Shown piece by piece: positions 21,046-46,040 of a stretch of 64,000 bases of DNA (its first letter is position 1; the number at the start of each line of letters is the position of its first letter). This DNA is from Gammaproteobacteria bacterium (GTDB taxonomy: Bacteria > Pseudomonadota > Gammaproteobacteria > CAJXQU01), in NCBI GenBank assembly GCA_965238175.1, contig CBDEGZ010000003.1, forward strand, positions 160,001 through 224,000. Direction: 5' to 3'. Position numbers and translations under genes: made by a program. Under the pieces are notes generated by a model, which saw only the letters and a list, made by a program, of their open reading frames with translations, was not told the origin of the DNA and did not search any database.

Positions 21046-21073
21046 AAAAAAACAGTATAAATAAACTGTTTTT
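21046..21073. terminator. Bidirectional terminator
   Basis: AAAAAAACAGT-ataaataa-ACTGTTTTT between convergent genes. Confidence 0.6.
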
Positions 21074-24000
21074 ACAGATTATCCTCCAACAACATAATTT
21101 CCGTTTTGCTTAGATCAAATAAATCATAAACCAACGAATTGATTTGTTGTTCTGCTTGGGCAATCTGCACACTGAGTTGTTCGATTTTCTCTGTCTCGAC
21201 ATTTAACCAGCTTTCCCAGTCATTACGATCTTGCAAAGGAATATCCTGTTTAAACTGCTTTTTGATCTCACGACGAAATAAAGCAAAATCCAGCGCCCAC
21301 CATTCGATCAGTTTTTTAGATAATTTGGCTTCACGATCAGAAGGACACAAGTCTGGAATGCGTTGACGCACCGCTTTCTGGATCGCATAGCGTTGTTCTG
21401 CAAAGTGTTGACAGGATTCTGCTAGCTCCGCGAGTGTTTGTTTTTGTTGATCTGTAGCTGTTGGGATAGGAAAAGGTTCAATGAACTGATTTTTCATCCT
21501 TAAATACCCACCACGTAAAATTGTAGTGACCGACGAAAAGTGAAACCAAGCCAGGCTAGAATTTAGTATCGCTAGTAATTCAAGTTCGGCATTAGGTAAG
21601 AAGAAAGTTGTGGCTTCTTGATATATACCTGACTTGTCGTAACAAAAAGGATTAGTCGAACAAATTTCGATATAGCTAATTTTTGGTTCTTCAAACATAT
21701 GATAGTAATCACAGGATCGTAGTTCCCACCAAAATTCACCTTTATCACTACGCCTTTTTCCTTTGGCTGAAAATGGAATTAACCAGTTACATATTGCTGG
21801 ATATAGTTGGAGTAGTTCAGAGAAGGCTTTATCCTCGTCAATATTTCCAAATTTAGAAGTCGTCCATCCTTTTGGAAAGAGAATTAAAAAGTTTCCCTGG
21901 TTATCAAAATGCCACTTTCTAATTTCATTTCCTTTGATTAAAGGTTTGACTATCTCAGTAGAGTTTGGATCTTCCCGCACTAGCTGATCACGTGTTTTGC
22001 GATCAATCACAAATGCTTCATTCAACCCAGTTTTGACGCCGTATTTGGGTGATCCATATACTTCTTTTAGCGTCGGTTTTCCTTGCGTAATTTTTGATCG
22101 CAGCTCGGCAAGTTGATGTTCTTCGAGTCGCCAGCTTTGTTGTTGCAATTGCTGTTGTTGCATGACGCGTTGAGATTGTTGGAAGTGACTGTGCAAATCT
22201 TCCGGCAGTTGATTTTGCAGGGACAAAAATGAAATGTTGCTGTTGGGATTTGCCGTTTGATTGCGCGCAATAATAATCGCCGGATAAGTTGTGACCCCTT
22301 CAAACAATTGCAAATCATTAAAATTGATCAGTACTTCCAATGTGGTTTGTTGGCTCAGAAAAGTGCGTAAATTTTTACCACTGCTGGTTTTAAAAAACGT
22401 GCTGGATGAAATGTAACCGAGCAAACCGTCGGGCTTTAACACACGCATACCCAGCTCAAAAAAGTAGCAATACAGATCAGCCACGCCATGATAAACCGTG
22501 TAGTTTTGTTCTAGCCAGGGTTTGATTTCACTAATCCGTTCCTGGCGGACATAAGGTGGGTTTCCGAGCACAACATCAAAACCACCTGTTGCAAATACCG
22601 CAGGAAATTGTTGTTGCCAGTTAAAGGCGTGATGATCAATTTGCCGATCGTTGATCAGAGAATTGCCGTGTTTGAGGTTGTCATCCAGACTGGTTAACGG
22701 TTTGCCCTTGTGCGCAGTTTTCAGCCAGAGTGAGAGTTTGGTAATTTCTATTGATTCTTCATTTAGATCAACACCGTATAAATTGTTGTTGAGGATTTCT
22801 TTATCCAGATCGAAGAGATCCCGGCTGCCGGTAATATCGGCCAGCTTGTCATTTACGCGGGTGTATTCAGCGTATAAATAATCAAATGCGGCAACTAAAA
22901 AAGCACCAGATCCGCAGGCAGGATCAAGTATGCGAATTTGCATTAAGGTATCACGCCAGCTTATCCAGAATTGTTGTTCGGATGATTTATTTTTCCAGCG
23001 TATTTTTTGATCACTTTCTTCAAAAGATTGTTTTTTTGTGTATTGGATCAACAACTGATCAAACGCATTTTTTAAGTAGCTGCCGAGGGTCTTTTCAACA
23101 ATAAACTGGGTGATGTTATCGGGTGTGTAAACGACGCCATGTTGCTTGCGCTTACCTTTAACGGCGGTTTGTTTTTCGATAAGTTGCGTAGGCGTAGTAC
23201 CAGCTTCGATCGTTTCGTGAATGGTTTCCAGATCACTGATCGATTGTTCAAAAATATGCCCGAGTACAGTGACGCCAACTTCGGATTCAAAGTCGTATTC
23301 ACCAAGCGCTTTGAATTTTTCACAAAGATCATCACTAATTACAAGTTGATCTATGGCTGGATCAGGTGAAAATAAACCGCCGTTATACGCGGGTATGTCG
23401 AGCGTTTTGTTACCCTGATTAATTGCCTGAAATAAACCTTTGAAATTTTCCCAAATTGGTTTTTGATTATAGGGATCATTATGTTGATAAGCCTTTTGCA
23501 AAGTTTGTTCTGGCAATAAGCCACGATCTTCCGCGAAAGCGATAAACAAAATACGATCGAGCAGAGTTTGTGCATGGCCGACTAATGTGAGTGACGAAGT
23601 GTTCGGATTGTCGTGTTGTAAGGAGTCGATCAAATGGAAACGTAAGTTGCGGTAATCTTCATAAAGACGACTGGTAATGTCTTTTTCGGCTTTTTCGCTG
23701 GCTTCTAGTAAAGAACGTGTTTCAGTTCTAAGTAAATTTTTTGCAGAGAGTAGCAGCATGAATCGAGCATATTCATGGGGATCTAATAGATCAGTAAATT
23801 GCCAGGTTTCGTAATCCTGGCGACCATAACCGACTGCATATAACCGAACCTCGACATAATTACTTAGTAAAACCCATTTTGCGCCCGGTGCGTCCATTGC
23901 ATATTCCCATGCTTGTTGAACCGGACTTTTATGACGGCCTGACATGATTGCGTCGAGATCTTTGGTGTTAGCACCTTTGAGTTCAAATGGCGCGATGATT

Positions 24001-24287
24001 TGTGCTTCTGTTTCGCTAAAACGGCCAAGTGCAACATCAACATTTCCACGACCAATTTTTTGCTCTCGCTGCAGATCCCATTGATCGGATTCACCAAAAC
24101 CCTGATAACCGAGAACCCCGATCAGAATCTCATGAATAAAATGACCATGGAGGGCAACTTCGTTTTGCGAATAGATCGAACGTGATTCGATGCTGTCCAC
24201 CCATTTTTGCAAAATAGTTTTGTGGGCATCAGGAATATGCAGTTCTGAGATCGAACGAGATAAAATTTTGGATTGAAAAAGTGGCAT
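21072..24287 (-). CDS. Type IIG (Eco57I-like) fused restriction endonuclease / N6-adenine methyltransferase
   Basis: N-terminal VD...ELK nuclease motif; YNGGLF, GHIFEQ, GVVYTP, DPACGSGAFL, GNPPY; TaqI-C-like target recognition region. Confidence 0.9.
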   Translation of the reverse strand: MPLFQSKILSRSISELHIPDAHKTILQKWVDSIESRSIYSQNEVALHGHFIHEILIGVLGYQGFGESDQWDLQREQKIGRGNVDVALGRFSETEAQIIAPFELKGANTKDLDAIMSGRHKSPVQQAWEYAMDAPGAKWVLLSNYVEVRLYAVGYGRQDYETWQFTDLLDPHEYARFMLLLSAKNLLRTETRSLLEASEKAEKDITSRLYEDYRNLRFHLIDSLQHDNPNTSSLTLVGHAQTLLDRILFIAFAEDRGLLPEQTLQKAYQHNDPYNQKPIWENFKGLFQAINQGNKTLDIPAYNGGLFSPDPAIDQLVISDDLCEKFKALGEYDFESEVGVTVLGHIFEQSISDLETIHETIEAGTTPTQLIEKQTAVKGKRKQHGVVYTPDNITQFIVEKTLGSYLKNAFDQLLIQYTKKQSFEESDQKIRWKNKSSEQQFWISWRDTLMQIRILDPACGSGAFLVAAFDYLYAEYTRVNDKLADITGSRDLFDLDKEILNNNLYGVDLNEESIEITKLSLWLKTAHKGKPLTSLDDNLKHGNSLINDRQIDHHAFNWQQQFPAVFATGGFDVVLGNPPYVRQERISEIKPWLEQNYTVYHGVADLYCYFFELGMRVLKPDGLLGYISSSTFFKTSSGKNLRTFLSQQTTLEVLINFNDLQLFEGVTTYPAIIIARNQTANPNSNISFLSLQNQLPEDLHSHFQQSQRVMQQQQLQQQSWRLEEHQLAELRSKITQGKPTLKEVYGSPKYGVKTGLNEAFVIDRKTRDQLVREDPNSTEIVKPLIKGNEIRKWHFDNQGNFLILFPKGWTTSKFGNIDEDKAFSELLQLYPAICNWLIPFSAKGKRRSDKGEFWWELRSCDYYHMFEEPKISYIEICSTNPFCYDKSGIYQEATTFFLPNAELELLAILNSSLAWFHFSSVTTILRGGYLRMKNQFIEPFPIPTATDQQKQTLAELAESCQHFAEQRYAIQKAVRQRIPDLCPSDREAKLSKKLIEWWALDFALFRREIKKQFKQDIPLQDRNDWESWLNVETEKIEQLSVQIAQAEQQINSLVYDLFDLSKTEIMLLEDNL

Positions 24288-24354
24288 GTACTTTCCTTTT
24301 CTCAGGATTGTGGCGCGGTTCTTTTTTTATCGCAAGTTTTACATTAAATATTGA

Positions 24355-26007
24355 TTAATCTTTGATATGAGTGAATCGCACAGGTACAATCACGCCTCGT
24401 GCCGGGGTGGCGGAATTGGTAGACGCGCCGGATTCAAAATCCGGTTTCTTCGGAAGTGCGAGTTCGATTCTCGCCCTCGGCACCATTTGATTATTGTTGG
24501 TTGAGATATCCCTTAAGAGTTTGAATGGTAAGGAGATTTCTGGTGTTCTAGCGCCATGATTTCGCTCATAAGCTAATCCTTGCGTAAATACGAGTTTTAG
24601 CACGGCTCTTTTATCTTCAAACCTCTCAGAGAGCCATATCTTATGCGGGTTTTCAAGAAATCGCAGCGCGGTTCTAGAAATGCTCTCAAAGGGTCTGATG
24701 GGCTGGCTCACACCCTCTATTTTTTCGTTGAGCAGCGCTTTTTCATGTTCTAGAGTATGCATCTTTGTTTCAAGGTTCTTGGTCACGGCGGCGCTGCTGG
24801 ACTCAATCATTAAATCTAGAGCCTTGTTAATTTTCTCATCTGTTTGCTCGCGCTGGGCTTTTAGCTCTTGCCTGCGTTGTTTTTGATGCTTTGCCCGGTA
24901 ATCCCATATGGCGCTGAACATGGCTGTTGCTGCCTTCATGACCGGCTTGGCAGGGGTTAGAGATTGAAGCAACTCTTCAAACGCGCCCTCCACATCGGCC
25001 CGGCGGAGTGATTTACCGTAGCTCTCGCAGCCCTTTTGTTGGCACAGGTAATAAGGATGGTGTTTGGTTTTGCCTTTACTAAAACACGAGGTGTAAGGCT
25101 TGCCGCAATCACCGCACAGGATAAAGCCGCGCAAAGGGAATTCCTGATTGAGGTCTTTACGCGCAGGCACATAAGCCCGGCCTTTCATACGGCCCTGTAT
25201 GCGCTCGAAAGTTTCCAAGTCTATAAGAGGTTCATGATGAGCCCGTACCATCGATATTCCCCAGCGCTCATGGGTGATATATCCGGCGTAGAGCACGCGG
25301 GTTAGCAAGTCAGGCACACGTTTATTGGCAATGCGTCCATGGGCATTTTTAGGAATGGTCTCATGCTTTTCTAAAAACTTGCGCACTTCTGCTTGGGTCT
25401 GAAACCTCCCCCGTGCATAGCCTTCAAGGGCTTCTTGAACGATAGAGGCGTTTGGCTCATCACGAACCAGCAATTTGCCATGACCTTTGGTCTTTTTGTA
25501 GCGGTAGCCTAGCGGGGCTTGAAAGACAAAATAGCCTTGCTCCAAACGTGCCTGCATTTTTTGAATGGTTTGGCGCCCGGTTTGCGCACGCTCCAGCTCA
25601 CCTTGGGCAGCATGGATAATCTCAACGAACTTGCCTTCAGGCGTATCTTCAAACTTAAAGTTTAAGCACTCTATTGTGGCATGATACTTCGTCATCTCAG
25701 CGCGCAGCTTAAGATGGAACATTGTGTCACGGGCAAAGCGCTTTAAATCATCAAAAATCACCACATAATCTGTATTTCTGCGGCGGCGTAAATAATCCAA
25801 TAGCGCCACCATACCTTTGCGTTTCATAAAATCACCGCCGCCAGAAACGTCATCAGTGAAGACCTTCTCAACGCTATAGCCCTGAGAGTTCGCATATTTG
25901 CGGCAGCGATGTTCTTGGCTTTCTAGCCCTGAGCCTTCAACGCGCTGCTTGATGGAGCTAATGCGGCAATAGATGATAGCTTTTGGTGGTTGAGATGTTT
26001 GCTTCAT
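24355..26007 (-). CDS. Large serine recombinase (resolvase + recombinase + zinc ribbon + coiled coil); last 43 aa read antisense through tRNA-Leu
   Basis: YCRISS catalytic motif, DDLKRFAR, APLGY, HEPLID.ETF, CGDC..YYLC zinc ribbon. Confidence 0.93.
   Translation of the reverse strand: MKQTSQPPKAIIYCRISSIKQRVEGSGLESQEHRCRKYANSQGYSVEKVFTDDVSGGGDFMKRKGMVALLDYLRRRRNTDYVVIFDDLKRFARDTMFHLKLRAEMTKYHATIECLNFKFEDTPEGKFVEIIHAAQGELERAQTGRQTIQKMQARLEQGYFVFQAPLGYRYKKTKGHGKLLVRDEPNASIVQEALEGYARGRFQTQAEVRKFLEKHETIPKNAHGRIANKRVPDLLTRVLYAGYITHERWGISMVRAHHEPLIDLETFERIQGRMKGRAYVPARKDLNQEFPLRGFILCGDCGKPYTSCFSKGKTKHHPYYLCQQKGCESYGKSLRRADVEGAFEELLQSLTPAKPVMKAATAMFSAIWDYRAKHQKQRRQELKAQREQTDEKINKALDLMIESSSAAVTKNLETKMHTLEHEKALLNEKIEGVSQPIRPFESISRTALRFLENPHKIWLSERFEDKRAVLKLVFTQGLAYERNHGARTPEISLPFKLLRDISTNNNQMVPRARIELALPKKPDFESGASTNSATPARGVIVPVRFTHIKD
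24362..24390 (+). promoter_or_regulatory. Putative sigma70 promoter of tRNA-Leu
   Basis: TTGATA-17 nt-TACAAT, 10 nt upstream of the tRNA. Confidence 0.65.
24401..24485 (+). tRNA. tRNA-Leu (anticodon CAA)
   Basis: GCCGGGGTGGCGGAATTGGTAGACGCG-CCGGATTCAAAATCCGG-long variable arm-GCGAGTTCGATTCTCGC-CCTCGGCACCA; 85 nt, CCA encoded. Confidence 0.97.
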
Positions 26008-26292
26008 TTACTCCTCCTTTGCAGGCGTCGACATTACGCGGCGATGAACAAGTTTAAGATTATGGTTCTTTTTTAAAGAATTGTCAGAATCAGGGGAAGC
26101 TTTTTCAAAGATATCGGGCAAAAACATCTGGACACTATCCAGCCCCCAGCCAATATCAACAAATGTATGCATGATGTGCCACAGAGCTGTGAGGAGCTGC
26201 TCAGCCTCCTCATCGGTAATCTCAACACCGTCTAAATGATGGAGATATTCATCGGGATTAAAGTCTAGCTTCGGTGGTGGTTGGCTGGCCAT
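26008..26292 (-). CDS. Small protein coupled to the recombinase gene
   Basis: RBS AAGGAG; stop codon abuts the recombinase ATG; core EQLLTALWHIMHTFVDIGWG. Confidence 0.7.
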   Translation of the reverse strand: MASQPPPKLDFNPDEYLHHLDGVEITDEEAEQLLTALWHIMHTFVDIGWGLDSVQMFLPDIFEKASPDSDNSLKKNHNLKLVHRRVMSTPAKEE

Positions 26293-26692
26293 GGGCGTTG
26301 CTCCTTATTGGTAAAGAGTAAAGATAGGCTTACTTTTTACCATTGAGAGCAGTGAGAAATGGGAAACATGTTAATCAGGGAAGAGGGCTTTAACCAGTCT
26401 CAGGCGGTGTAATACAGGCACATTTTTGTATTCCAAATCCATTCAATGCTTGGATATAAACCCAATCACACTCCGTGCAAGCTGTGCGGTGTTATACACC
26501 GCGCTTGGCAAGGGGGTCGCTGCGCACCCCCGTTGCATCCCCCTAGCAGATGGCGTTACTCGCACCATTCAATGTAATCGCATTAGGTTTATAGCTAAGC
26601 TTCCCATGCGATTTTCATTGACATAATTGATTATGGTCTGCTATCAATATCACCCTGAAAGTTAATGGATTAACAATAAGAAAGCGCAAGAT

Positions 26693-28105
26693 TTGTCTAC
26701 TACGAAAGATGTATACGAAGAGTACATTATTGAGTGTTTAAAAGAGGCGGGCCTCACGGATGAGCAAGCTCATTCTGTTTGTCCAACTCTACTGAATGGG
26801 CTTGATTTTCTTGGTGGAACGCGTTCTTTTGACTCTCAGTTATTCGCATATAAAGAGAAGGTCGAGCGAAGCTCTTCGTTGTTAGACCTTAAGAAAAGTC
26901 AGTTCGTTGCAGCGGCACTAAAACAACCTCAACTCTTTTATCAATCGCCGGAAACCATCAACGCGAATGTTGAGGGTAGTGTCAGATTGCTAAAACTTGA
27001 GAAAAAGCAGTTTTTATCCGCGGCACTGAAACAGCCTCAGCTATTTTATCAACGTCCAGAAACCATCAATGAGAATGTTGAAAGGAGTGCTTCATTGTTG
27101 GAGCTTAAAAAGAGCCAGTTCATTGTGGCTGGATTGAAACGGCCCCAGCTTTTTGCTCAATCACCGGAGACAATCAATAGAAACATTGAAGGGAGCGCTG
27201 CATTATTGAAGCTTGAGAAAAGCCAGTTCGTCGCAGCAGCACTAAAAAACCCTTCACTCTTTTATCGATCACCGGAGGCCATCAATAGAAATGTTGAGGC
27301 CAGTGCTCTATTGTTAGAACTTAAAAAAAACCAATTCGTTGCCGCAGCGTTAAAGCAGCCCCAACTCTTTGCTCAATCGCCAGAGACTATCAATGGAAAT
27401 ATTGAGGGTAGTGCTTCACTGCTGGGGCTTGAGAAAAGCCAATTCGTTGCCGCAGCGCTAAAACAGCCTTCACTCTTTCCCCGATCACCAAAGACAATCA
27501 AGAGCAATATTGAAGAGAGCGCTGTGTTATTGGGCCTTGAGAAGGATCAGTTTATAGCGGCGGCTTTAAAGCAGCCTCAGCTTTTTGGCCAATCACCGGA
27601 GACGGTCAACAGCAATGTCGAGAGAAGCGCATCTTTGTTGAAACTTGAAAAAAAACAGTTTGCAGTAGCTGCACTAAAACGGCCCCCTCTTTTTGTTCAA
27701 TCACCAGAGACGATTGCCAGACATGCACGGCTTATGGAGATATTTGCACAAAAAGGCCTTGCGCCTAATTCTGTGCAGAAATTTTATCTTAAAACCCCAC
27801 TTATGCTTACCCTTGCGGATAATAATTTTCACTTGCGTTTGGTATATGCACTTCATTCAAAAATGGGGAATATTGAAAACTTCACATTATTGCGCACACC
27901 AAGAAAAACAATTGAGCGTGATTTTGTGAGGGCTTTGGGGCACAATCCTGATGTCAAAACCATCACAGATATAAAGCCTCGCAGAGAGCAGGTTCAAAGT
28001 AAGGCAGCTCAAAACCTTCGTACTTTGATTGCAAATATACAAAATGGGTTGTTAAAGGGGTATAAGTACGAGCCTACAGAAGAGGTAAGCGAACTTGCTT
28101 TGTAG
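26693..28105 (+). CDS. Tandem-repeat protein with eight 36-aa mTERF-like repeats
   Basis: Repeats at aa 57-344, consensus VExSAxLLxLxKxQFVAAALKQPQLFxQSPETINxN; TTG start; TTGACA upstream at 26618. Confidence 0.8.
   Translation: MSTTKDVYEEYIIECLKEAGLTDEQAHSVCPTLLNGLDFLGGTRSFDSQLFAYKEKVERSSSLLDLKKSQFVAAALKQPQLFYQSPETINANVEGSVRLLKLEKKQFLSAALKQPQLFYQRPETINENVERSASLLELKKSQFIVAGLKRPQLFAQSPETINRNIEGSAALLKLEKSQFVAAALKNPSLFYRSPEAINRNVEASALLLELKKNQFVAAALKQPQLFAQSPETINGNIEGSASLLGLEKSQFVAAALKQPSLFPRSPKTIKSNIEESAVLLGLEKDQFIAAALKQPQLFGQSPETVNSNVERSASLLKLEKKQFAVAALKRPPLFVQSPETIARHARLMEIFAQKGLAPNSVQKFYLKTPLMLTLADNNFHLRLVYALHSKMGNIENFTLLRTPRKTIERDFVRALGHNPDVKTITDIKPRREQVQSKAAQNLRTLIANIQNGLLKGYKYEPTEEVSELAL
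26861..27724 (+). repeat. 8 x 108-bp coding tandem repeat
   Basis: In-frame 36-codon units with synonymous divergence. Confidence 0.93.
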
Positions 28106-28128
28106 TTCTCAAGGGGGAACGCAGCAAC

Positions 28129-28224
28129 TTACTCCAAACTAGGAAAGTTATCTTCAAGATAGTCACTCCACTCCTCCAACGTATCACACAAGGTGTTCGA
28201 GGTTTCACTATCAGGGTGCACCAT
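28129..28224 (-). other. Displaced 3' end of the serine recombinase gene (MVHPDSETSNTLCDTLEEWSDYLEDNFPSLE*)
   Basis: Starts inside the right direct repeat with the same ATG GTG C as recombinase codons 508-510; open for 31 codons to TAA. Confidence 0.75.
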
Positions 28225-28260
28225 TTCAACGTCCACTACCTTCCAGTAACACCTACACAG

Positions 28261-29346
28261 TTACTCTTCTTGCTTGTGTATTAGATCTACTAATGACCTG
28301 TTGATATAAAAATTTGTGCGTCCTACTTTGTGTTTGTCGACAAAATTATGTTCGTATAATTCATTCAAATATTTGCTGGCTGTGATGCGCTTAACATCTA
28401 ATTGATCCATAACAAATTGTACTTTTGTGTAAGGATGAAAAAACAGGTTGTTGAGTAGTTCTTGGCTATAAATTTTTGGTAGTTCTTTACGCATTCTCTG
28501 CTTGGTCACCATAATTAGTTCACGGATCTGATTTACAAACTCTATGGTTTCTCTTGCAGTAATTGCGACACCATCAACAATATAGGCTAGCCAGTCTTGC
28601 CAGTTATTTTGATCGCGAACCAATTGTAACAATCGATAATAATCATCTTTGCTACGGACAATATATCGGCTAAGGTACAAGATAGGTAAGTCTAGCAAAC
28701 CACTTCTTACTAAATACAAAATGTTGAGTATTCTACCTGCTCTTCCATTTCCATCGTAAAATGGATGGATACTTTCAAATTGATGATGAATAATTGCCAT
28801 TTTTATTAATGGATCGAGATCTGAAAGTTGATCGTCGTTAATGTATTCGACAAGGTTGGTGAGCAGATCTGTTATTTCATCTGGGTGCTGTGGAGGAGTA
28901 TGGACAACTTCTCCTGTCCTACTATTACCGATTACAATACCTGGTATTTTTCTAATACCCGGCTTGTTAGGTTCAATGATGGCTTGAATACGTAATATAT
29001 CTTCGAAGCGGATTAGATCTGTGTCTCTTGTATTTCTATAACTTTCCCATAAAGAAGCACGATAGTTCTCCACTTCTTTTGCAGCTTGATTGATTTCTTT
29101 TCCTTGAATAACACCAGCCTGAAAGAGTTGGTCATGAGTGGTAAAGATGTTTTCAATTGCGGAGCTGTCTTTCGCTTCTTGCATTGTTAGTGTAGAAATC
29201 AGTATGCCTTCATTAGGTATGGTTTTAGCCACACCTTTCAATTCAGCAAGGTAACGATGAGCTTGAGCGACTTTTTTTAGAAGCTCTATTGATTCCCATG
29301 AAGCTTCTTCAGGAAAAGGTAACTTCGTAAGAGAGGAAGATTCCAT
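28261..29346 (-). CDS. Fic-domain AMPylase with N-terminal inhibitory motif and probable C-terminal winged helix
   Basis: HPFYDGNGRAGR catalytic motif; SSAIEN inhibitory (S/T)xxxE(G/N) motif. Confidence 0.92.
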   Translation of the reverse strand: MESSSLTKLPFPEEASWESIELLKKVAQAHRYLAELKGVAKTIPNEGILISTLTMQEAKDSSAIENIFTTHDQLFQAGVIQGKEINQAAKEVENYRASLWESYRNTRDTDLIRFEDILRIQAIIEPNKPGIRKIPGIVIGNSRTGEVVHTPPQHPDEITDLLTNLVEYINDDQLSDLDPLIKMAIIHHQFESIHPFYDGNGRAGRILNILYLVRSGLLDLPILYLSRYIVRSKDDYYRLLQLVRDQNNWQDWLAYIVDGVAITARETIEFVNQIRELIMVTKQRMRKELPKIYSQELLNNLFFHPYTKVQFVMDQLDVKRITASKYLNELYEHNFVDKHKVGRTNFYINRSLVDLIHKQEE

Positions 29347-29599
29347 ATGTATAGAAAACTGGGTTTAATTGATATATGGATCAGTATATGTATATATTTT
29401 CCGATTATCTATACATATCAAGATAAACATATATAGAAAACAGCATAATCTATACATTAAAGAAAACTATTTACTTAAAGGATAGATGTGTGAATAAAGT
29501 GAGTAACTTCGATCACCTGGGGGTATTTATAGGGGTATATGAATAAATGTGAAAACAACTAATTCAATATTATCAATTAGTTACTGTTAGTTAGCGGTG

Positions 29600-29617
29600 C
29601 TCGCCCTCGCACCATTT
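29600..29617 (+). repeat. att scar: copy of tRNA-Leu 3' end
   Basis: CTCGCCCTCG-CACCATTT vs tRNA CTCGCCCTCGGCACCATTT (one-base gap). Confidence 0.8.
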
Positions 29618-29745
29618 CAACGTCCAACACTGTCCAATAACATCCTCGAAAACATAAAATATCAATAATTTACCTTGATTCTTTGTCCTGAGTCGTCTTG
29701 TCTTTTATCTGACTTGGGCTGACGAAGAAATGTTAGCCTAACATA

Positions 29746-30371
29746 CGTTGTCGGTTCGGATCGTTTTAATTCGGAAAGGAAATTTATCCACCACGTAATT
29801 AATGAAATCAATCGAATTAGCTTGCGTGTGTTTCTCATAGATTTTAAGTGCTCTTATACGCGTACAATCATCAACCGCTGTGTATTTTGGAAACGTTTAA
29901 GACGTTTTCCGTGTTTATCTTTGAAAAAGAGAAACTTAACATCCACTTGAACATGATGTCCCGGCACTTTTTTTCGTAACGTTTAAACTTACTGTGTGAA
30001 CGTTTCTTGATGTTTTCAGGGAGCCGATTTAGTTTATTTCGGCACAAGAAACACCCATTGCGAGATATTTTAATGTCATGGTAACGCTGTAGATGCCATA
30101 CAATCATATCTGGGCCAAAATGGTACGTGGTTCTCAAGTAAATAATTTTTTCTTCGATTTCTTTAGGCAATCGTAGTTTATGATTTTCAGGACAAGGTTT
30201 ATTGTTAACTAAAGCAGCTTCCCCATGCTCTTCATATGCTCGCTTCCACGTATAAAATGTTTCCCGACAAATACCAAAGTAACGACAGGTCTTTGCGATA
30301 TTGCCAATTTCTTTAGCGTGATTTAATACCTTTAGTTTTCTTGTAATATCGTGTTGTGCCTTTTGATTCAT
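29746..30371 (-). pseudogene. IS481-family transposase, frameshifted and truncated
   Basis: N-terminal CRYFGICRETFYTW HTH; continues in other frames as HVQVDVKF and TAVDDCTRIR..PFRIKTIRTDN, then stops. Confidence 0.85.
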
Positions 30372-30421
30372 ATGCTCGACTCCTAAAATAAGCTGATGAC
30401 AGTATAATCTGTCTGCCTAAG

Positions 30422-30448
30422 GCGAGATTTTTATACTCGCCCTTGGCA
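30422..30448 (+). repeat. Degenerate copy of tRNA-Leu T-arm/acceptor strand (old att scar)
   Basis: GCGAG-atttttata-CTCGCCCTTGGCA vs tRNA GCGAG-ttcgatt-CTCGCCCTCGGCA. Confidence 0.55.
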
Positions 30449-32158: not shown

Positions 32159-32773
32159 TTACAAACTTTCTTCAACTCGATATCCATATTCTATCGCTGC
32201 ATGTGTAATCACTTCAAAGAAGCTCTGTCCAAAAGAGCGAGCAATATAAATATCAAATTGATCATTGCTTAAGCAATGGATTATTGCATTCATATGAAAC
32301 AGGCTTGTTGTGCGAACATCATCTGGATTGAAATATCCCTCGTCTAAATCCAACATTGTCCCTTTGCGTAAGACATTTCTAGCTTCTGGACCTTCTATTC
32401 GTAATACACAACGACTATGGCTTTGATCTGTAATTGCAGCAACGTCTTCACTCACAACATTACGAATTACGGCTTCAAGATCAGAAGTTTCCTTCTCAAC
32501 GATCAGCCAGCGATCAGGTCCTAACCATAGTGAAGATGTCGTTTTTGATTGGCTTGATTTACATGCTGTTCGATCAAGTTTCAAACTAATACTTCCTTCA
32601 AGTGCAGCCGTTAAAACATCAACTTGATCTTCCCAGGCAGCAATTTGTACCATAGATAAATCAGTCCGAGCAGTGATTGTTACACCCGGTTGATTATTTC
32701 TGATTTCACCAAAATCCCCAGTTTCATAACTTTCAGTTAAAACTGCTCTACGTTTTGTTATTGTTTCAACCAT
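32159..32773 (-). CDS. soxG: Sarcosine oxidase / N-methylglutamate dehydrogenase gamma subunit
   Basis: LWLGPDRWLI, DQSHSR, ARSFG; operon position. Confidence 0.85.
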   Translation of the reverse strand: MVETITKRRAVLTESYETGDFGEIRNNQPGVTITARTDLSMVQIAAWEDQVDVLTAALEGSISLKLDRTACKSSQSKTTSSLWLGPDRWLIVEKETSDLEAVIRNVVSEDVAAITDQSHSRCVLRIEGPEARNVLRKGTMLDLDEGYFNPDDVRTTSLFHMNAIIHCLSNDQFDIYIARSFGQSFFEVITHAAIEYGYRVEESL

Positions 32774-35762
32774 GGAGTCGCTCTCCTTTAGGATCGACGA
32801 AGATGGGTGATACCACCTTCATTGGTACCGTAATATTCTGTAATGGAAAACTCATTTGCACAGTCTTGTTTTTCCAGGCATCTAACCCGCCTTTGATCAA
32901 GCCAAGTCCTATTGGGTGATTATGCTCTACACAAAACCCAGTGGAAGTGATATGTCCTAACATCTCAACGGGAATTTCCGCATTCGCATCCAATACAACT
33001 TGTGATCCCGGTTTTAAAGCGCTAACCCCATCTACAGGCACGAAACCGACAAACTTCTTGCGATCCTCAACTGTTAACTGTTCTCTATAAGCAAGTGGTT
33101 TTCCGACAAATTCTTTTTTCTTCGACATCATCATTCCTAAACCTAAATCATTGGCCGTGGTACGTCCGTCAATTTCTGGTCCAGCAACATGACCTTTTTC
33201 AATACGCATATTCCCTAACGTTTCAGTACCGTATGGAACAATATTAAAGTCCTGTCCTGCCTCATAGATCTGCTCCCAGACATAGCGGCCATAGTCACAA
33301 GGAACATTTAATTCGAAAGCTAATTCACCTGAAAAAGAGATACGGAATAAGCGACATTTTGGAATACCAGCAGCAACACATTCAGACGCACCCATAAACG
33401 GAAATGCTTCATTGGAAATATCCAGATCAACTATCTTTTCAAGTACTTTTCGTGCGTTCGGCCCAGCGACGGCCATCGCTGCCCACTGTTCAGTTACACT
33501 AGTTACTTTAACGCGCAAATCCGGCCAAACAGCTTGTAAATAAAACTCTAAGTTTGACATCACCTTAACTGCATTAGCTGTTGTGGTGGTCATTACGAAA
33601 TGGTTTTCACTAAGTCGTGAGGTAGTTCCATCATCGTAGACCATGCCATCTTCACGTAGCATCATGCCGTAACGTGCTTTGCCTATTGCAAGTTTTTTCC
33701 AGTGATTGATATACATTCGCTCAAGTAACTCAGCAGAATCTGGACCTTGTATATCGATTTTACCTAGCGTGGTTACATCACAAATACCGACAGATCCTCG
33801 AGCACATTTAGTTTCACGAATAAAAGCATCACGAACGGTCTCTTTACCCTGAGGGTAATGTCGAGGTCGACGCCAGATTCCGGCATCTATCCACTCACAG
33901 CCATGTTCTTCATGCCAGGAATCCATTGCAGTACGACGGATCGGCATAAAATGTTCACTGATCTCTGCACCACCGAGCGCGCCCAAAGAGACTGGTGTAT
34001 ATGGAGGTCGAAAAGTAGTATGGCCAGTTTCAGGTATAGAACACCCTTTAGCATCGGCCATAATCGCCATACCGGAGACGTTGGATGTTTTACCCTGATC
34101 TGTTCCCATACCGAGCGTGGTATATCGCTTTAAATGTTCGACAGAAATATAGCCTTCTCGGTGAGCAAGTTTAATATCGCTTACTGCAACATCATCTTGA
34201 TGATCAACAAACTTCTTAGGATGACCAGACTGCGGATCAGGTGATTCCCATACAGGTTGATAAGTCGCCTCAGATACATCATTCGTAGTTGGTGTTGCTG
34301 GAACCTCTACAGCAAACCCAGCAGCAGTTGCCGCTTCAGCACCTGCAGTGAATCCTTCTTTCAAACAATCTTTAAGCGCAAAATTTCCTTGTGCAGCACC
34401 GGCAGATCTTTCAGCTTGCTTTGATTGTCCCGGGACGAACATATTCCGTTTATCATCCCAAGTAGTTTTACCACCCGACTGGCTAAATAAATGTAGAGCA
34501 GGTGCCCAACCATTCGACATCGCGACTACATCACACTCAATTGTCAAATTGTTCTGCGAATTGATGTCCATGACTTCAACGCTCTTCACACCATCCGCAT
34601 TTCCCTTCGCATCTACTACGACATGTCCCTGGATAATACGCATCCCATGTTCTTGAACAGCTGCAGCGTAAGCTGATTTTTCCTGTCGAGAATCTACAAT
34701 TGCTTCTACTCGGACACCAGCGGTTGCTAAGTCAATAGCAGTACGATATGCATCATCGCAACTGGTGTAGATCACAGCTTTTTCACCCGGTGCTACGCCA
34801 TACTCATTTACATAGGCACGTACAGCGCCAGCCAGCATAATATTTGGTCGATCATTATTTCCGAACACCATCGGCTGTTCATGCGATCCTGTTGCAAAGA
34901 CAACTTGTTCTGCCTGAATATTCCACATTCGCTGACGCGGTTTATGCTCAGTTGGTATTGGAAGGTGATCACAAACTCTCTCTACGCAACCAACCATATT
35001 ATGATCGTAATAACCGAAGGCAGTTGTTCTGGTGAGAATTTGAACATTCTCCATTGCTTCAAGTTGATCAATCGTTTGATTGATCCATTCAATGGCTGGT
35101 TTTCCATCAACCTGGTATGTCTCACGGCGTAATTGACCACCCAAATCTGGGCGCTCATCGACCAATATAACACGTGCGCCACTGGCCGCAGCAGATTTTG
35201 CAGCGGCCAATCCGGTTGGACCAGCACCAATGATCAAAACTTCGCAATGACGACTCATATGATCATACTGATCAGGATCGGCTAATTTAGACGCGGTTCC
35301 CATGCCAGCAGATTTTCGAATGATATCTTCAAACCACATCCACAATTTCGTATTACGGAATGGACCCATAAACGTTTTGTAGTAGAAACCAGCTGGCAAG
35401 AAATTCTTTATATAGTCATTCACCTGTTGGGGATCGCTGCGAAGACTTCTCCCACGGTTTTGACTCTCGGCAACCAGTCCATCAAACAACTCTACGACTG
35501 TGGCCCTGGTGTTCGGTTCTTGTCTGTTACCTTCACGCAAATGCACCATTGCATTTGGTTCTTCTGAACCTGCGGAAAATATACCCCGAGGCCGATGATA
35601 TTTAAAACTACGACCAACAAGTTTCACATCATTCGCGAGCAGTGCAGAAGCCAGCGTATCGCCTTGATAGCCGGTATATTCTTTACCATCAAAATAAAAT
35701 TGAAGCGGCTTATCACGATCAATAAAACCGCCTTTACCTAATCTATTTGTTTGAGATGTCAT
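32766..35762 (-). CDS. soxA: Sarcosine oxidase / N-methylglutamate dehydrogenase alpha subunit
   Basis: GDTLASALLAN, RSFKYHRPRG, KRYTTLGMGTDQGK, GcvT-like C-terminus. Confidence 0.92.
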   Translation of the reverse strand: MTSQTNRLGKGGFIDRDKPLQFYFDGKEYTGYQGDTLASALLANDVKLVGRSFKYHRPRGIFSAGSEEPNAMVHLREGNRQEPNTRATVVELFDGLVAESQNRGRSLRSDPQQVNDYIKNFLPAGFYYKTFMGPFRNTKLWMWFEDIIRKSAGMGTASKLADPDQYDHMSRHCEVLIIGAGPTGLAAAKSAAASGARVILVDERPDLGGQLRRETYQVDGKPAIEWINQTIDQLEAMENVQILTRTTAFGYYDHNMVGCVERVCDHLPIPTEHKPRQRMWNIQAEQVVFATGSHEQPMVFGNNDRPNIMLAGAVRAYVNEYGVAPGEKAVIYTSCDDAYRTAIDLATAGVRVEAIVDSRQEKSAYAAAVQEHGMRIIQGHVVVDAKGNADGVKSVEVMDINSQNNLTIECDVVAMSNGWAPALHLFSQSGGKTTWDDKRNMFVPGQSKQAERSAGAAQGNFALKDCLKEGFTAGAEAATAAGFAVEVPATPTTNDVSEATYQPVWESPDPQSGHPKKFVDHQDDVAVSDIKLAHREGYISVEHLKRYTTLGMGTDQGKTSNVSGMAIMADAKGCSIPETGHTTFRPPYTPVSLGALGGAEISEHFMPIRRTAMDSWHEEHGCEWIDAGIWRRPRHYPQGKETVRDAFIRETKCARGSVGICDVTTLGKIDIQGPDSAELLERMYINHWKKLAIGKARYGMMLREDGMVYDDGTTSRLSENHFVMTTTTANAVKVMSNLEFYLQAVWPDLRVKVTSVTEQWAAMAVAGPNARKVLEKIVDLDISNEAFPFMGASECVAAGIPKCRLFRISFSGELAFELNVPCDYGRYVWEQIYEAGQDFNIVPYGTETLGNMRIEKGHVAGPEIDGRTTANDLGLGMMMSKKKEFVGKPLAYREQLTVEDRKKFVGFVPVDGVSALKPGSQVVLDANAEIPVEMLGHITSTGFCVEHNHPIGLGLIKGGLDAWKNKTVQMSFPLQNITVPMKVVSPIFVDPKGERLHG

Positions 35763-36040
35763 TGCTGCTCTCCTTCCAACATCGCGTCTGCCGGGCCAGT
35801 GGCCAGTACCTCATGAGTCAACGTGTCTCGTCTGACTTTTACCCACTGACGACAACCGTTTACGTGATGCCAATATTCCAGATGTGGCCCAATCGGGTTG
35901 TCTCGTTGATAAACATAATCAACCCATTCAGCTTGACTAGTACTTGGTGAATCGTCTGGACGTTTGTTTATTGCATCTCCACCATAGGTAAACTCATTCA
36001 TGTTTCGTTCACCACACCAGGGACAATTAATTCGAATCAT
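35759..36040 (-). CDS. soxD: Sarcosine oxidase delta subunit
   Basis: CPWCGER..EF.YGG, EYWHHVNGCRQW..RDT. Confidence 0.92.
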   Translation of the reverse strand: MIRINCPWCGERNMNEFTYGGDAINKRPDDSPSTSQAEWVDYVYQRDNPIGPHLEYWHHVNGCRQWVKVRRDTLTHEVLATGPADAMLEGEQQ

Positions 36041-36055
36041 TACAGTTCTCCATTC

Positions 36056-37315
36056 CTAGTGTAATTCTGGCGCTGGACCCACGCCTTTTTCATCAATAAG
36101 ATACCCACGTTCAAATCGGTTGAGCGTGAATCCTTCATTTAATTTATGTGGTTGATCTTGTGCAATAGTATGCGCAAAACACCAGCCAGCAGCAGGTACA
36201 GCTTTAAACCCGCCATAACACCAACCAGCATTGAGATATAAACCTTCAGTTGAGGTTTTGCTAATGATCGGGCTACCGTCCATCGACATATCCATCACCC
36301 CTGCCCAGTGACGCAACAAGCGTATGCGGCCTATCGAAGGCATTAGCGCCATGCCTGACTGCAATACATGATTAACCATCGGTAGATTCCCTCTTTGAGC
36401 ATAAGAGTTATACCCATCCAGGTCCCCACCAAAGACTAGACCACCTTTATCTGATTGACTGACATAAAAATGTCCAGCCCCGAAAGTACAGACTGTATCG
36501 ATAAAGGGCTTTAATGGCTCCGAGACCATCGCTTGTAGCTTATGACTTTCTATAGGTAATCTGTGAATACCAGCAAGATCACAAACTGGGCCAGAGTTAC
36601 CGGCAACCGAAATACCGATTTTTTTAGCCTTAATCGATCCACGAGTCGTTTGTACACCTTGCACCTTGCCGTCCTGGATATCGAAGCCAGTAACTTCACA
36701 GTTCTGTAATAGATCAACACCGAGCTGATCTGCTGCTCTGGCATATCCCCATGCAACGGCATCATGCCTTGCAGTACCGGCACGTGGTTGTTGTAACCCC
36801 CCATAGACGGGAAAACGAGCCTTATCCGAATAATCCAACATAGGAAGTTGTTCTTTGACTTCTTCACGGCTTAGTAGCTCAGCATCAATGCCATTTAACC
36901 GCATTGCATTGCCACGTCTTGCAAAAGCATCCATCTGTGCGTTTGAATGACCAACATTGATAATCCCACGTTGCGAAAACATGACGTTATAATTAATTTC
37001 CTGAGCTAATGCTTCCCATAACTTCATGCTATGTTCATAGAAATGCGCATTATCTTCTAACATGTAGTTGGAACGTACTATCGTTGTATTGCGCCCGATA
37101 TTACCCCCGCCCAGATAACCTTTTTCACAGACCGCAATATTTGTCATCCCATGCATTTTTGCAAGGTAGTAAGCTGTTGCTAACCCATGTCCACCACCAC
37201 CTATAATGACTGCGTCATATTCTTTTTTCGGTTCTGGATCACGCCAAGCACGCTCCCAGTGTTTTTGTCCAGTCAGCCCACCTTTAAGGACTTCTAAAAC
37301 CGAGTACCGGCTCAT
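36056..37315 (-). CDS. soxB: Sarcosine oxidase / N-methylglutamate dehydrogenase beta subunit
   Basis: GGGGHGLATAYYLA, GRNTTIVRSNY, ARHDAVAWGYA; start MSRYS at 37315 after GGAGG. Confidence 0.92.
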   Translation of the reverse strand: MSRYSVLEVLKGGLTGQKHWERAWRDPEPKKEYDAVIIGGGGHGLATAYYLAKMHGMTNIAVCEKGYLGGGNIGRNTTIVRSNYMLEDNAHFYEHSMKLWEALAQEINYNVMFSQRGIINVGHSNAQMDAFARRGNAMRLNGIDAELLSREEVKEQLPMLDYSDKARFPVYGGLQQPRAGTARHDAVAWGYARAADQLGVDLLQNCEVTGFDIQDGKVQGVQTTRGSIKAKKIGISVAGNSGPVCDLAGIHRLPIESHKLQAMVSEPLKPFIDTVCTFGAGHFYVSQSDKGGLVFGGDLDGYNSYAQRGNLPMVNHVLQSGMALMPSIGRIRLLRHWAGVMDMSMDGSPIISKTSTEGLYLNAGWCYGGFKAVPAAGWCFAHTIAQDQPHKLNEGFTLNRFERGYLIDEKGVGPAPELH

Positions 37316-37507
37316 GACATTAATGCCTCCACAGACACAAGGCTGATATATATGTATCAACCCTTTATTGAAATTAATAGTGTGAACATTTGTTGACCAG
37401 ATTTCTGGCACAATTACATTCTCACTCAATAATAAGCGTAATGAATTAATTCGATCGAGGAAATACCCTTTCGGTAATACACCTTAAGGAGCGTATTTCT
37501 GATCCAG

Positions 37508-37540
37508 AAAAAAGCCGACTTATAAATAAGCCGGCTTTCT
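37508..37540 (-). terminator. Intrinsic terminator after the mgs operon
   Basis: AAAAAAGCCGACTTAT-aa-ATAAGCCGGCTTT; T-run on the minus strand. Confidence 0.75.
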
Positions 37541-37567
37541 ACCACTTCTTAAAAACTCAGAAATTAA

Positions 37568-37960
37568 CTAACTGAATTTTTCATAGGCCTTTCTTAAATC
37601 AACCATTGGATGGTTAGGTGCCATTTGAAATTTAACCAACAGTTCACGGGCAATCATGTCCCGATCCTGCTGATTGTCTGGTAGTTCAATATCTTCTGGT
37701 ACTGTTACCCAACCATTGATATTTCGATCAAAAACTGCGGCACGGTTTTCTTCATAACCCATGTGCACATCTTCCAACCAATTAAGATCTTTCCAACCCA
37801 TTATCTCAATATATTTTTTCAAAAATGGTGTACAAAGATCCATATCAGGGACAAGGTTTACATCGTAACGATAACCAATGTGCTGACCGATCGTTTTCTC
37901 TCGCTCACTATCAAGACCATCAGAGTCCATGAATTGATCAATATTTTTATCTTCAGACAT
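37568..37960 (-). CDS. Hypothetical protein in the mgs operon
   Basis: Good RBS (AAGGAG), co-oriented, protein-like composition. Confidence 0.75.
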   Translation of the reverse strand: MSEDKNIDQFMDSDGLDSEREKTIGQHIGYRYDVNLVPDMDLCTPFLKKYIEIMGWKDLNWLEDVHMGYEENRAAVFDRNINGWVTVPEDIELPDNQQDRDMIARELLVKFQMAPNHPMVDLRKAYEKFS

Positions 37961-37970
37961 AATTAACTCC

Positions 37971-39323: not shown

Positions 39324-39344
39324 TGATATTTCCTCTATCTGTGC

Positions 39345-41110: not shown

Positions 41111-41391
41111 TTCGTATAGTCTCCTATAAACAACCCCACAGTAAGCTGCAGGGAATTGCTAATAAATTACCTTCGGATCTAACAAACCCTTGGGCAACAT
41201 TTCTTTTCTCACGTGGCAAGCCATTGAGAATTGTTCCTTTAGAGATTAGGAATTAATCAATAATATGTATCCAGATCCTGACCGACCACGTTATGACTAA
41301 ACTTCTCCAATTATCACTTCCCAGAATGCTTTTTAAACATCTGTATTACTGTACCAGCACGATGGATATGTGCCGGTTTAGATACGAACAA

Positions 41392-42876: not shown

Positions 42877-43008
42877 GCTTCTTCTCCTCTATGATTATTA
42901 TTGATCTGAGAATCATTCAGTTATTTCTAATGTGTATTTCTATTATGAAACACTTTCTATTTTTTATAATTTTTAGAATTTCATTCAGCACATTACCCTT
43001 TAATAAAA

Positions 43009-46031: not shown

Positions 46032-46040
46032 TCGTTACTC

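Follow-up and report, generated by a model that had tools for sequence, protein, structure and literature searches.

An mTERF-like tandem-repeat protein gene in a 3.7-kb insertion at a gammaproteobacterial tRNA-Leu gene, with a probable role in sequence-specific DNA binding

The stretch of DNA analysed here (hereafter the window) comprises 64,000 nucleotides (nt) of an uncultured gammaproteobacterial lineage (assembly GCA_965238175.1, contig CBDEGZ010000003.1, positions 160,001 to 224,000 of the forward strand). Its subject is a single gene at 26693..28105, the product of which carries an array of 36-amino-acid (36-aa) repeats of the mTERF type. The gene lies within a 3.7-kilobase (kb) insertion at a tRNA-Leu(CAA) gene, divergent from a large serine recombinase operon, with a type IIG restriction-modification gene on one side of the tRNA gene and a SoFic-type Fic gene on the other. 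The gene and its parts are as follows.

26693..28105, plus strand: mTERF-family (pTERF-like) repeat protein gene, TTG start, 470 aa; assigned from Pfam PF02536, an AlphaFold2 (AF2) model and MTERF1 as best structural match
26693..26878, plus strand: N-terminal helical cap (N-cap), aa 1-62; acidic, isoelectric point (pI) 4.6, helices at 2-18, 23-40 and 53-63
26879..27742, plus strand: eight contiguous 36-aa mTERF motifs, aa 63-350; assigned from register, DSSP, 108-nt period and per-position variability
27743..28102, plus strand: degenerate mTERF motif(s) and a subfamily-specific C-terminal cap (C-cap), aa 351-470; assigned from phmmer, the MTERF3 alignment and conserved columns

When the protein is cut every 36 aa from residue 63, eight units fall into exact register and a degenerate further unit, GLAPNSVQKFYLKTPLMLTL, follows at aa 355-374, just as had been described in an earlier reading made from the letters alone (the sequence-only reading); the eight variable strings quoted in that reading (KQPQLFYQS to KRPPLFVQS) are all present as written. 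Tandem Repeats Finder reported periods of 108 nt (score 383) and 216 nt (score 615) in the gene, a repeat search of the window recovered six copies spaced by exactly 108 nt, and each of the eight units scored 68-80 bits against a hidden Markov model (HMM) of the repeat. The units are 50-81% identical to one another, their mean pairwise identity being 67% in nucleotides and 66% in amino acids, and invariant residues are specified by diverse synonymous codons, with four codons each for L2 and L14 (motif numbering L1 L2 ... P17 ... P24 ... N30). Given this level of DNA identity and the varied synonymous codons, the array is considered to be old and its scaffold to be under purifying selection. 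A recent duplication of the repeats was ruled out by the synonymous divergence between units, as was a chance open reading frame (ORF) or assembly artefact by the same divergence together with the 735 relatives described below.

The TTG start is backed by the N-termini of homologues. The protein is basic overall (pI 9.47), with a net charge of +12 over the repeat region, and its acidic, helical N-terminus contains no signal peptide or recognisable secretion signal. No catalytic or effector domain was detected, mTERF being the only family to pass the Pfam cut-off, in keeping with what the sequence-only reading had noted on both counts. The C-cap is marked by the conserved columns ALGHxPDV and NLRxLIANIxNGLL in an alignment of relatives. 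When folded separately, the C-terminal 121 aa gave a mean predicted local distance difference test score (pLDDT) of 85.9, with the first 68 of these residues matching mTERF motifs weakly, and no fold match above Z 4.4 was obtained for the final beta-hairpin and helix (the last ~50 residues). Among 232 collected family proteins, the N-cap HMM matches 49 and the C-cap HMM 29.

Profile searches and structural modelling together place the protein in the mTERF family, with a predicted superhelical repeat fold. PF02536 is matched at 33.8 bits (E 2.3e-8) against a cut-off of 23.1 bits, and 41 of 51 aligned relatives match it individually (E<=1e-3). A phmmer search of the PDB sequences retrieved human MTERF1 alone (E 0.004, aligned up to aa 389), and a profile of the 51 relatives retrieved only mTERF proteins, namely MTERF1 (6.6e-7) and the Tetrahymena mitoribosomal mTERF protein mS93. 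The AF2 model, built on the 51-relative alignment, reached a pLDDT of 92.4 and a predicted TM-score of 0.85, and DSSP assigned to each unit helices of about 14, 10 and 4 residues, the short one at P-x-L-F, which corresponds to the three-helix unit with a conserved proline that defines the mTERF motif. The best Foldseek matches were DNA-bound MTERF1, followed by MTERF3, MTERF4 and mitoribosomal mTERFs, all with a probability of 1.0 (E 3.4e-5 to 4.6e-4 for MTERF1 and MTERF3). VIA-align superposed the model on MTERF1 with Z 18.5 (318/324 residues, root-mean-square deviation, rmsd, 6.4, model residues 10-387), on MTERF3 with Z 15.4 (rmsd 3.5 Å, model residues 121-451) and on MTERF4 with Z 9.8, the matches to MTERF4 and the mitoribosome mTERFs being significant at Z 9-15; Z values of up to ~13 are possible between unrelated helical repeats, a level that the MTERF1 and MTERF3 matches exceed. 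The mTERF-like superhelix anticipated from the sequence is borne out by these comparisons.

Structures of transcription activator-like effectors (TALE) rank lower (VIA-align Z<=7.8, rmsd 12-16 Å; Foldseek E>=0.014). Membership among the TAL effectors or TALE-like proteins was rejected on those Z values, on the three-helix units and on the absence of any Pfam TAL-effector match at E<=1, and membership among the pentatricopeptide repeat (PPR) proteins because no Pfam PPR match was found at E<=1 and no PPR protein occurred among the best 50 Foldseek and VIA-align matches listed. Searches with the repeat protein returned a single spurious sub-threshold match in NCBIfam, one weak sub-threshold match in PHROGs (E 0.0023) and no matching model in PADLOC. 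ESM Atlas scores, at <=0.87, serve as leads only; several bacterial clusters there carry PF02536.

For a long time the mTERF proteins were regarded as a eukaryotic invention confined to organelles. That picture, on which the sequence-only reading still drew, is outdated: a full-text literature search turned up one paper on prokaryotic mTERF-like proteins, "Systematic discovery of DNA-binding tandem repeat proteins" (Nucleic Acids Res 2024, PMC11417379), in which the family is named pTERF, and 735 representatives were retrieved here. According to that paper, pTERF proteins comprise 3-11 tandem units in ~46 members, every one of which comes from a metagenome-assembled genome and most of which belong to Bacillota; pTERF1 binds ACTNNNAGTC with a dissociation constant (Kd) of 1.87 nM, pTERF2 binds another motif, and sequence-specific binding of double-stranded DNA (dsDNA) was evidenced by systematic evolution of ligands by exponential enrichment (SELEX), electrophoretic mobility shift assay (EMSA), a reporter assay and biolayer interferometry (BLI). 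The paper also describes pTERF1 as being without the canonical proline and hydrophobic pattern, reports an enrichment of RNA-metabolism Gene Ontology (GO) terms among predicted pTERF target genes, and gives neither gene context nor biological role. With eight contiguous units on a gammaproteobacterial chromosome, the window protein falls within the pTERF description of prokaryotic, contiguous tandem mTERF-like units (3-11), and is accordingly not the first of its kind. The sequence-only reading had allowed that the protein might prove to belong to an already characterised bacterial family, and this has very nearly come to pass, given the SELEX, EMSA and BLI data on pTERF (PMC11417379).

The variation between units is confined largely to a few positions. 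Over 1205 units from the 232 proteins, L1, L2, P17, L19, F20, P24, T26, N30 and A35 are 80-100% conserved (P17 in 92% and P24 in 88% of units), and within-protein entropy is highest at positions 21, 18, 29, 16 and 22. In the closest relative, a 588-aa protein on a metagenome contig (locus L072), non-synonymous differences between units concentrate at positions 11, 16, 18 and 21, then at 35 and 25, with 35 tying with 21, and synonymous differences fall mostly at other codons; as analysed, the pattern is that of TALE arrays. The position-specific variability around the proline that had been proposed from the sequence is upheld by both data sets. Direct readout by MTERF1 involves R162, R202, R251, R350 and R387, as given in the legend to Figure 1 of PMC4705650. 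These residues were mapped from a HMMER alignment read by hand, with the numbering offset set by F243A between two PDB entries (5crk): R162 corresponds to motif position 15, R202 and F243 to position 18 and R251 to position 26, in an alignment that is weak (E 0.004). From the placement of these residues at 15, 18 and 26, the most variable positions of the family would flank or coincide with the base-contacting positions of MTERF1.

Relatives of the protein are numerous and widely scattered. A word-indexed search returned 180 (the best at 44-59% identity), and an exhaustive search of representatives returned 735 at E<=1e-3, of which 138 at E<=1e-30; uncultured bacteria and archaea account for most of the 735. 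By the repeat HMM, the 232 collected proteins carry between 1 and 11 units (mode 5-6), with a period of 36 aa in 678 spacings and of 39 aa in 317. The gene is single-copy in its own genome and was found in none of six same-genus genomes (0/6) and none of the other genomes sampled from the class (0/399), so that it is regarded as accessory and horizontally acquired; one of 400 genomes sampled from the phylum holds a relative, 593 aa long and encoded amid genes for proteases and flagella. A degenerate DNA pattern for AALKQPxLFxxxPE met 45 stretches in a collection of species genomes, 42 of them with a repeat-hit ORF and 36 with at least three units. The record titles listed for these loci are of metagenome-assembled or uncultured genomes throughout, and the lineages include Melainabacteria/Gastranaerophilales, Alphaproteobacteria, Micavibrio, Saccharibacteria, Minisyncoccia, Pacearchaeota, Muribaculaceae, Clostridia and Planctomycetaceae. 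Beyond these genomes, tblastn found no match to the protein in phage records and one weak match among plasmids (Paenibacillus, 24% identity), and IMG/VR gave 0 matches with both DNA patterns. A pattern from an eight-sequence alignment gave 161 hits on genome contigs with none confirmed, and a pattern from a repeat alignment gave 247 hits on metagenome contigs and 180 on viral contigs, again with none confirmed in either. A pattern for the C-cap met 11 stretches on metagenome contigs, 10 of them by chance and one real, this being L072.

At 34 loci of the wider family the neighbouring genes were scanned (150 of 154 ORFs, the four ORFs of L069 being left out and L058 having none) and proved to be mostly unrelated housekeeping genes. 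Neighbours from mobile elements or defence systems are clear at five of the 34 loci, namely L026 (DpnII), L031 (TrwC relaxase), L047 (coupling protein), L060 (IS200) and L067 (AlwI plus two methylases), and a serine recombinase neighbours none (0/34). In the absence of a conserved gene partner, the protein is taken to be free-standing, and the stand-alone placement of its relatives among unrelated genes is that of free-standing DNA-binding regulators. In some uncultured genomes mTERF-like repeat genes are present as tandem pairs or as two or three scattered copies (L029, L034 and L048; L028/L039/L041; L051/L057), the Prochloron scaffold L034 having neighbouring genes with 12 and 16 repeat-HMM hits; such multi-copy genes are lineage-specific expansions.

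The L072 protein is 58% identical to the window protein, scores 69.2 bits to PF02536 and has ten near-identical units plus a terminal one, with N-cap and C-cap as in the window protein. The 3' end of its gene overlaps by 6 nt a convergent gene for a 183-aa resolvase/invertase (Pfam Resolvase 1.2e-43). An inspection of L072 for inverted repeats revealed no obvious invertible segment around the repeat gene. A palindromic pair of 18-mers, CAAAAAGGAACCTTTTTG and CAATAAGGTTCCTTTTTG, 107 base pairs (bp) apart at L072:301-443, lies just upstream of the small serine recombinase; these are candidate recombinase binding sites.

The insertion that holds the window gene, together with its target site, shows the following features besides the repeat gene itself.

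24401..24485, plus strand: tRNA-Leu(CAA), the integration target (ARAGORN; Rfam tRNA 60.4 bits)
24355..26007, minus strand: large serine recombinase, 550 aa (Pfam Resolvase, Recombinase, Zn_ribbon_recom)
26008..26292, minus strand: 94-aa ORF abutting the recombinase start, a conserved partner of the recombinase family
26293..26692, no strand: divergent intergenic region of 400 bp with two repeated motif pairs
24480..24488, plus strand: left attachment (attL) core GCACCATTT, 9 bp, the tRNA CCA end plus TTT
28218..28226, plus strand: right attachment (attR) core GCACCATTT, followed by the ancestral tRNA-downstream flank CAACGTCC...
26559..26575, plus strand: internal att-like sequence CTCGCACCATTCAATGT, the first 11 nt of which are CTCGCACCATT (26559-26569)

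In the same-genus genome G004, TTTCAGCGTCTAAC..., very similar to the CAACGTCC flank, directly follows tRNA-Leu, and the tRNA gene is without the insert in G002, G004 and G006. The second core, with the G004-like flank after 28226, identifies 24489-28226 as an insertion at the tRNA CCA end. Its cores are 3,738 bp apart, and it contains the recombinase, the 94-aa ORF, the 400-bp intergenic region and the repeat gene, the last being divergent from the recombinase operon (the nearest gene ends lie at 26292 and 26693). The recombinase has the domain set of the large serine recombinases (Resolvase, PF00239, 5.5e-24; Recombinase, PF07508, 1.5e-6; zinc ribbon, PF13408, 6.5e-9) and matches a PHROG integrase at 7e-70. 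The element itself accounts for only about 506 of its codons, and the frame continues over attL and antisense through the tRNA gene, an exit also seen in the full-length paralogues at tRNA genes; since the frame leaves the element in this way, integration changes the C-terminal tail of the enzyme.

The sequence-only reading had called the repeat gene the sole cargo of a mobile element. The delimited 3.7-kb insertion, with its att cores and an empty site, supports the mobile setting, and the internal 11-mer leaves the sole-cargo part of the claim partly open. This 11-mer, CTCGCACCATT, recurs without a mismatch in the tRNA-remnant att copy at 29606-29616, a match expected by chance in 3.7 kb about 0.002 times by our own arithmetic. 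Lying as it does between the recombinase module and the repeat gene, it means that the repeat gene could form a separate islet, arrayed in tandem with the recombinase element instead of being carried by it, and CTCGCACCATTCAATGT may be a junction remnant of two tandem islets or a protein-binding site. The recombinase unit has two candidate right ends, at 26559-26575 and 28218-28226. A comparison of dyad symmetry and P-arm conservation among paralogues found nothing convincing by which to choose between them, and the recombinase C-terminus in hypothetical excised forms was uninformative. No excision or empty-site joint over the element was found in the assembled contigs of two metagenome runs from one study.

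Three further full-length paralogues of the recombinase (46-54% identity) and two fragments occur in the same genome, among them copies around 1705003, 994905, 714396 and 2527115 of G000:C3. Two of the full-length paralogues and both fragments directly adjoin a tRNA gene at its 3' (CCA) end (Leu-CAG, Met, Lys and Arg), and no tRNA was found near the third full-length paralogue. Homologues of the 94-aa ORF (40-50% identity by tblastn) lie directly upstream of the three paralogous recombinases; the ORF has no Pfam, PADLOC or PHROG match and is a candidate directionality or regulatory factor. The three full-length paralogous elements (L023, L024 and L025, at G000:C3:1693000-1705200, 983000-995100 and 1733500-1745600) each carry a TraG/VirD4-type (type IV) coupling protein and many ORFs without a Pfam match. 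They would seem to form an uncharacterised family of integrative elements, conjugative or mobilisable, of which the window copy is a minimal member. The mTERF-like gene is absent from all three, which marks the repeat gene as cargo and not core machinery.

Within the intergenic region, CCATTCAATG stands at 26439 and 26565 and occurs 13 times in the 3.35-Mb genome against 7.8 expected, and GCGGTGTWATACA stands at 26404 and 26486 and nowhere else in the genome; both are candidate operators or promoters. The RNA of 26400-26620 folds better than all 200 shuffles (z -3.5), and this segment, which contains the perfect palindrome GCGGTGT-TATA-CACCGC, could represent operators, a site resembling an origin of transfer (oriT-like) or a small RNA. 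Rfam identified only the tRNA over 24000-30000, and a promoter and terminator scan did not rise above the shuffled expectation. A 14-nt intergenic word (26395-26408) recurs at least 20 times at G000:C3:576061-577460, mostly 66 bp apart with two 132-bp gaps; the latter locus looks like a CRISPR array, and the window match is at chance level.

The surroundings of the insertion are marked by further accessory genes.

28227..29617, no strand: older, separate islet with a SoFic-type Fic gene; 34-nt direct repeats, the distal one preceded by a tRNA 3' remnant
28261-29346, minus strand: SoFic-type Fic gene (Pfam Fic_N, Fic, SoFic-like_C; PADLOC SoFic 5.6e-111)
21072..24287, minus strand: type IIG (MmeI-like) restriction-modification enzyme, 1071 aa (Pfam Eco57I, N6_Mtase, MmeI; PADLOC REase_MTase_IIG 5.6e-176)

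The Fic islet measures 1.4 kb between direct repeats that are 85% identical (28218-28251 and 29609-29642), and its distal tRNA 3' remnant is without one G. At the matching site of G004 lies a 10.7-kb island that ends in the same G-deleted remnant (L013, about 546 and 11309). The type IIG enzyme has no match in G004, where ~200 bp separate the TPR-gene match from the tRNA match, and a 69%-identical match in G005. With the restriction enzyme on one side and the SoFic islet on the other, the tRNA gene is viewed as a hotspot for accessory and defence genes. A truncated transposase-like helix-turn-helix ORF lies at 29871-30371 (within 29748-30435 of the window), and in one metagenome run, X1, a second contig of low depth matches 29748-30435 piecewise with segments replaced, which suggests diverged insertion-sequence copies in the community. 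In the same run the assembly breaks inside the tRNA (24417-24480), the left contig having ~2x the mean depth of the right, element-carrying one; this may reflect strain heterogeneity at the hotspot, which contig depths cannot show. The host genome is near-complete (97.7% by marker genes) in three contigs. At 32159-46859 of the window it encodes sarcosine-oxidase-type subunits, a glutamine-synthetase-like ligase, glutamate-synthase-like and amidotransferase-like proteins and an electron-transfer flavoprotein, with FolD nearby, a cluster typical of methylamine or N-methylglutamate use that suggests a methylotrophic host.

Taken as a whole, the protein is probably a solenoid of the pTERF kind that binds dsDNA sequence-specifically and serves as an element-borne regulator or roadblock. 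It would consist of the acidic N-cap, the eight 36-aa three-helix motifs, one or two degenerate motifs and the subfamily C-cap, and would bind dsDNA as a superhelix that tracks the major groove in the manner of human MTERF1. The invariant residues L1, L2, P17, L19, F20, P24, N30 and A35 are envisaged to build the solenoid, and the residues at 11, 16, 18, 21 and 22 beside Pro17, with 28 and 29 at the start of the next helix, to set the specificity. Tight binding to a site of ~15-25 bp would then make the protein a repressor or a roadblock to transcription or replication, either controlling the divergent recombinase operon from within the element or insulating the element from tRNA read-through. 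Sequence-specific dsDNA binding of the MTERF1 type is very likely in view of the family, the fold, the charge and the published experiments. The role itself, control of the recombinase operon or insulation against tRNA read-through, is put forward tentatively and may well be wrong; it is preferred because of the divergent arrangement and the repeated intergenic motifs.

Several considerations weigh against this proposal. We infer that the ligand is DNA instead of RNA, which positions do the reading and what the protein does biologically, the regulator or roadblock role from gene geometry only. The variable residues are presumed to face the concave groove, and they were mapped onto MTERF1 through a pairwise alignment that is weak (E 0.004). 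The repeated motifs between the genes may just as well serve the recombinase or the 94-aa protein, the repeat gene is not needed for recombination given the three paralogous elements without it, and the window protein and pTERF1 may belong to different branches. Moreover, some mTERFs bind RNA, as MTERF4 does on rRNA and, by the titles and abstracts of the respective papers, plant mTERF4 and mTERF9. A protein that binds structured RNA (rRNA, a tRNA precursor or an intron) and acts in RNA maturation, like MTERF4 and several plant mTERFs, should therefore be given consideration, particularly as MTERF4 and the mitoribosome mTERFs are significant structural matches and the predicted pTERF targets are enriched in RNA-metabolism GO terms (PMC11417379). 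Such a role is nonetheless improbable, because the best and longest structural matches are to DNA-bound MTERF1, the prokaryotic members tested bind dsDNA with nanomolar affinity as stated in that paper, and a horizontally acquired accessory gene on a mobile insertion would be an unlikely ribosome-biogenesis factor.

A role in defence or exclusion, in which the protein would bind invading phage or plasmid DNA and block its replication or transcription as a single-gene immunity module in a tRNA-linked hotspot, appears unlikely, although the location of the gene between the type IIG enzyme and the SoFic gene at a tRNA where islands pile up, its accessory and horizontally acquired character (0/6 same-genus and 0/399 class genomes) and the restriction systems adjoining its relatives at L026 and L067 all speak in its favour, and hypervariable reading positions would fit an arms race. 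The suggestion, already made from the sequence, rests solely on neighbouring genes, and guilt by association at one locus is weak; no PADLOC model matches the repeat protein, no effector domain is present in it, and beyond the five of 34 wider-family loci the neighbours are housekeeping genes. A factor coupled to the recombinase, which would direct, gate or orient integration, excision or inversion by marking a DNA site or hiding it, or would repress the recombinase gene, is quite unlikely in turn. A serine recombinase is adjacent at both subfamily loci with visible neighbours (2/2, the window and L072) as against 0/34 in the wider family, the att-like 11-mer and the repeated motifs lie upstream of the repeat gene, and the natural site of MTERF1 lies inside a tRNA-Leu gene according to PDB entry titles, which is matched, maybe by coincidence, by the location of the element at tRNA-Leu. 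Yet two loci only are involved, one of them the source of the idea, and apart from the Resolvase family their recombinases have little in common (BLASTP E 0.023); mobile DNA often carries serine recombinases, so that co-location may just mean mobile cargo, three paralogous elements have the recombinase and the small ORF without the repeat gene, and repeat gene and recombinase gene are not co-transcribed, their orientation being divergent or convergent. A bolder form of this idea is about as unlikely: the capped subfamily would be a natural reprogrammable DNA-reading module that gates, directs or insulates serine-recombinase recombination of its element, reading a long site through ~4 hypervariable residues per repeat and acting, for example, at the tRNA junction as a polar roadblock, or else in site selection or directionality, in effect a natural counterpart of engineered TALE-recombinase fusions. 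Least probable by far is a secreted mimic of host mTERFs that would target organelle DNA in a eukaryotic host. It is in organelles that the family is best known, and many relatives stem, by record titles, from host- or prey-associated lineages (Melainabacteria/Gastranaerophilales, Saccharibacteria, Micavibrio, Pacearchaeota), whereas the protein lacks both a signal peptide and any recognisable secretion signal, genes for a secretion system are absent from the vicinity, the host belongs to an uncultured gammaproteobacterial lineage, and the window holds genes of free-living metabolism (the trp operon, methylamine and sarcosine-oxidase-type genes, glnA); the host-directed effector that the sequence-only reading had entertained is hence disfavoured.

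New in the present locus are a mobile setting with defined limits, a neighbourhood in a defence hotspot, a map of the variable positions across the family and the hint, from two loci, of an association with serine recombinases. The 3.7-kb insertion reduces the candidate targets of the preferred DNA-binding regulator to a short list, namely the intergenic region, the att sites, the tRNA gene and the neighbouring defence genes. The limitation of variation to a few positions beside the proline, overlapping the MTERF1 base contacts, is what a decipherable code would need; if such a code exists, the 36-aa units would join zinc fingers and TALEs as a third natural scaffold for programmable DNA binding, and if there is none, the gene would be one more accessory DNA-binding regulator. 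The first hint of one subfamily travelling with serine recombinases may simply mean that it rides on mobile DNA.

Among known systems, the nearest is pTERF (PMC11417379), which as described there shares with the window protein a prokaryotic origin, contiguous three-helix repeats (eight in the window protein), the Pfam mTERF annotation, a provenance almost exclusively from metagenome-assembled genomes and a DNA specificity proposed to come from repeat-to-repeat differences. The published members are mostly from Bacillota, whereas the window protein is gammaproteobacterial, belongs to a subfamily with its own N-cap and C-cap (29/232) and sits in an integrative insertion; it was compared with pTERF1 and pTERF2 by description and not by sequence. 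It also keeps the conserved proline and hydrophobic pattern that pTERF1 is described as lacking, for which reason the two perhaps represent different branches. With human MTERF1 (PDB 3MVA, 3N6S and 5CRK) the protein has in common the Pfam family, the fold, a motif of helix, helix, short helix and proline, and a conserved Asn in the third-helix region, N30 aligning with the N of ..KANIE..; the base-contacting residues of MTERF1 map, in a weak alignment, beside the proline, where the prokaryotic family varies. MTERF1 is an organellar, nuclear-encoded protein with degenerate motifs of uneven length and ~12% identity, in contrast to the eight exact 36-aa units found here, and nothing evident in the window protein corresponds to its flipping of bases by R162, F243 and Y288. 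The fold match to MTERF3 and MTERF4 (PDB 3M66 and 4FP9) extends through the C-terminal part, although MTERF4 binds rRNA with its partner NSUN4 and no such partner gene is present at the window locus.

The integrative-element paralogues in the same genome resemble the window copy in recombinase family (46-54% identity), small upstream ORF and insertion at tRNA 3' ends, but are larger and carry the type IV coupling protein, in place of which the minimal 3.7-kb copy carries the mTERF-like gene. Finally, the likeness to TALEs (the AvrBs3 family, and the STAR proteins described in PMC11417379) is one of principle. Near-identical helical repeats of 33-36 aa form a DNA-wrapping superhelix in which few residues per repeat are hypervariable, most clearly so in L072, and the unit differs in having three helices against two and ~4 spread variable positions against the 12/13 diresidue of TALEs.

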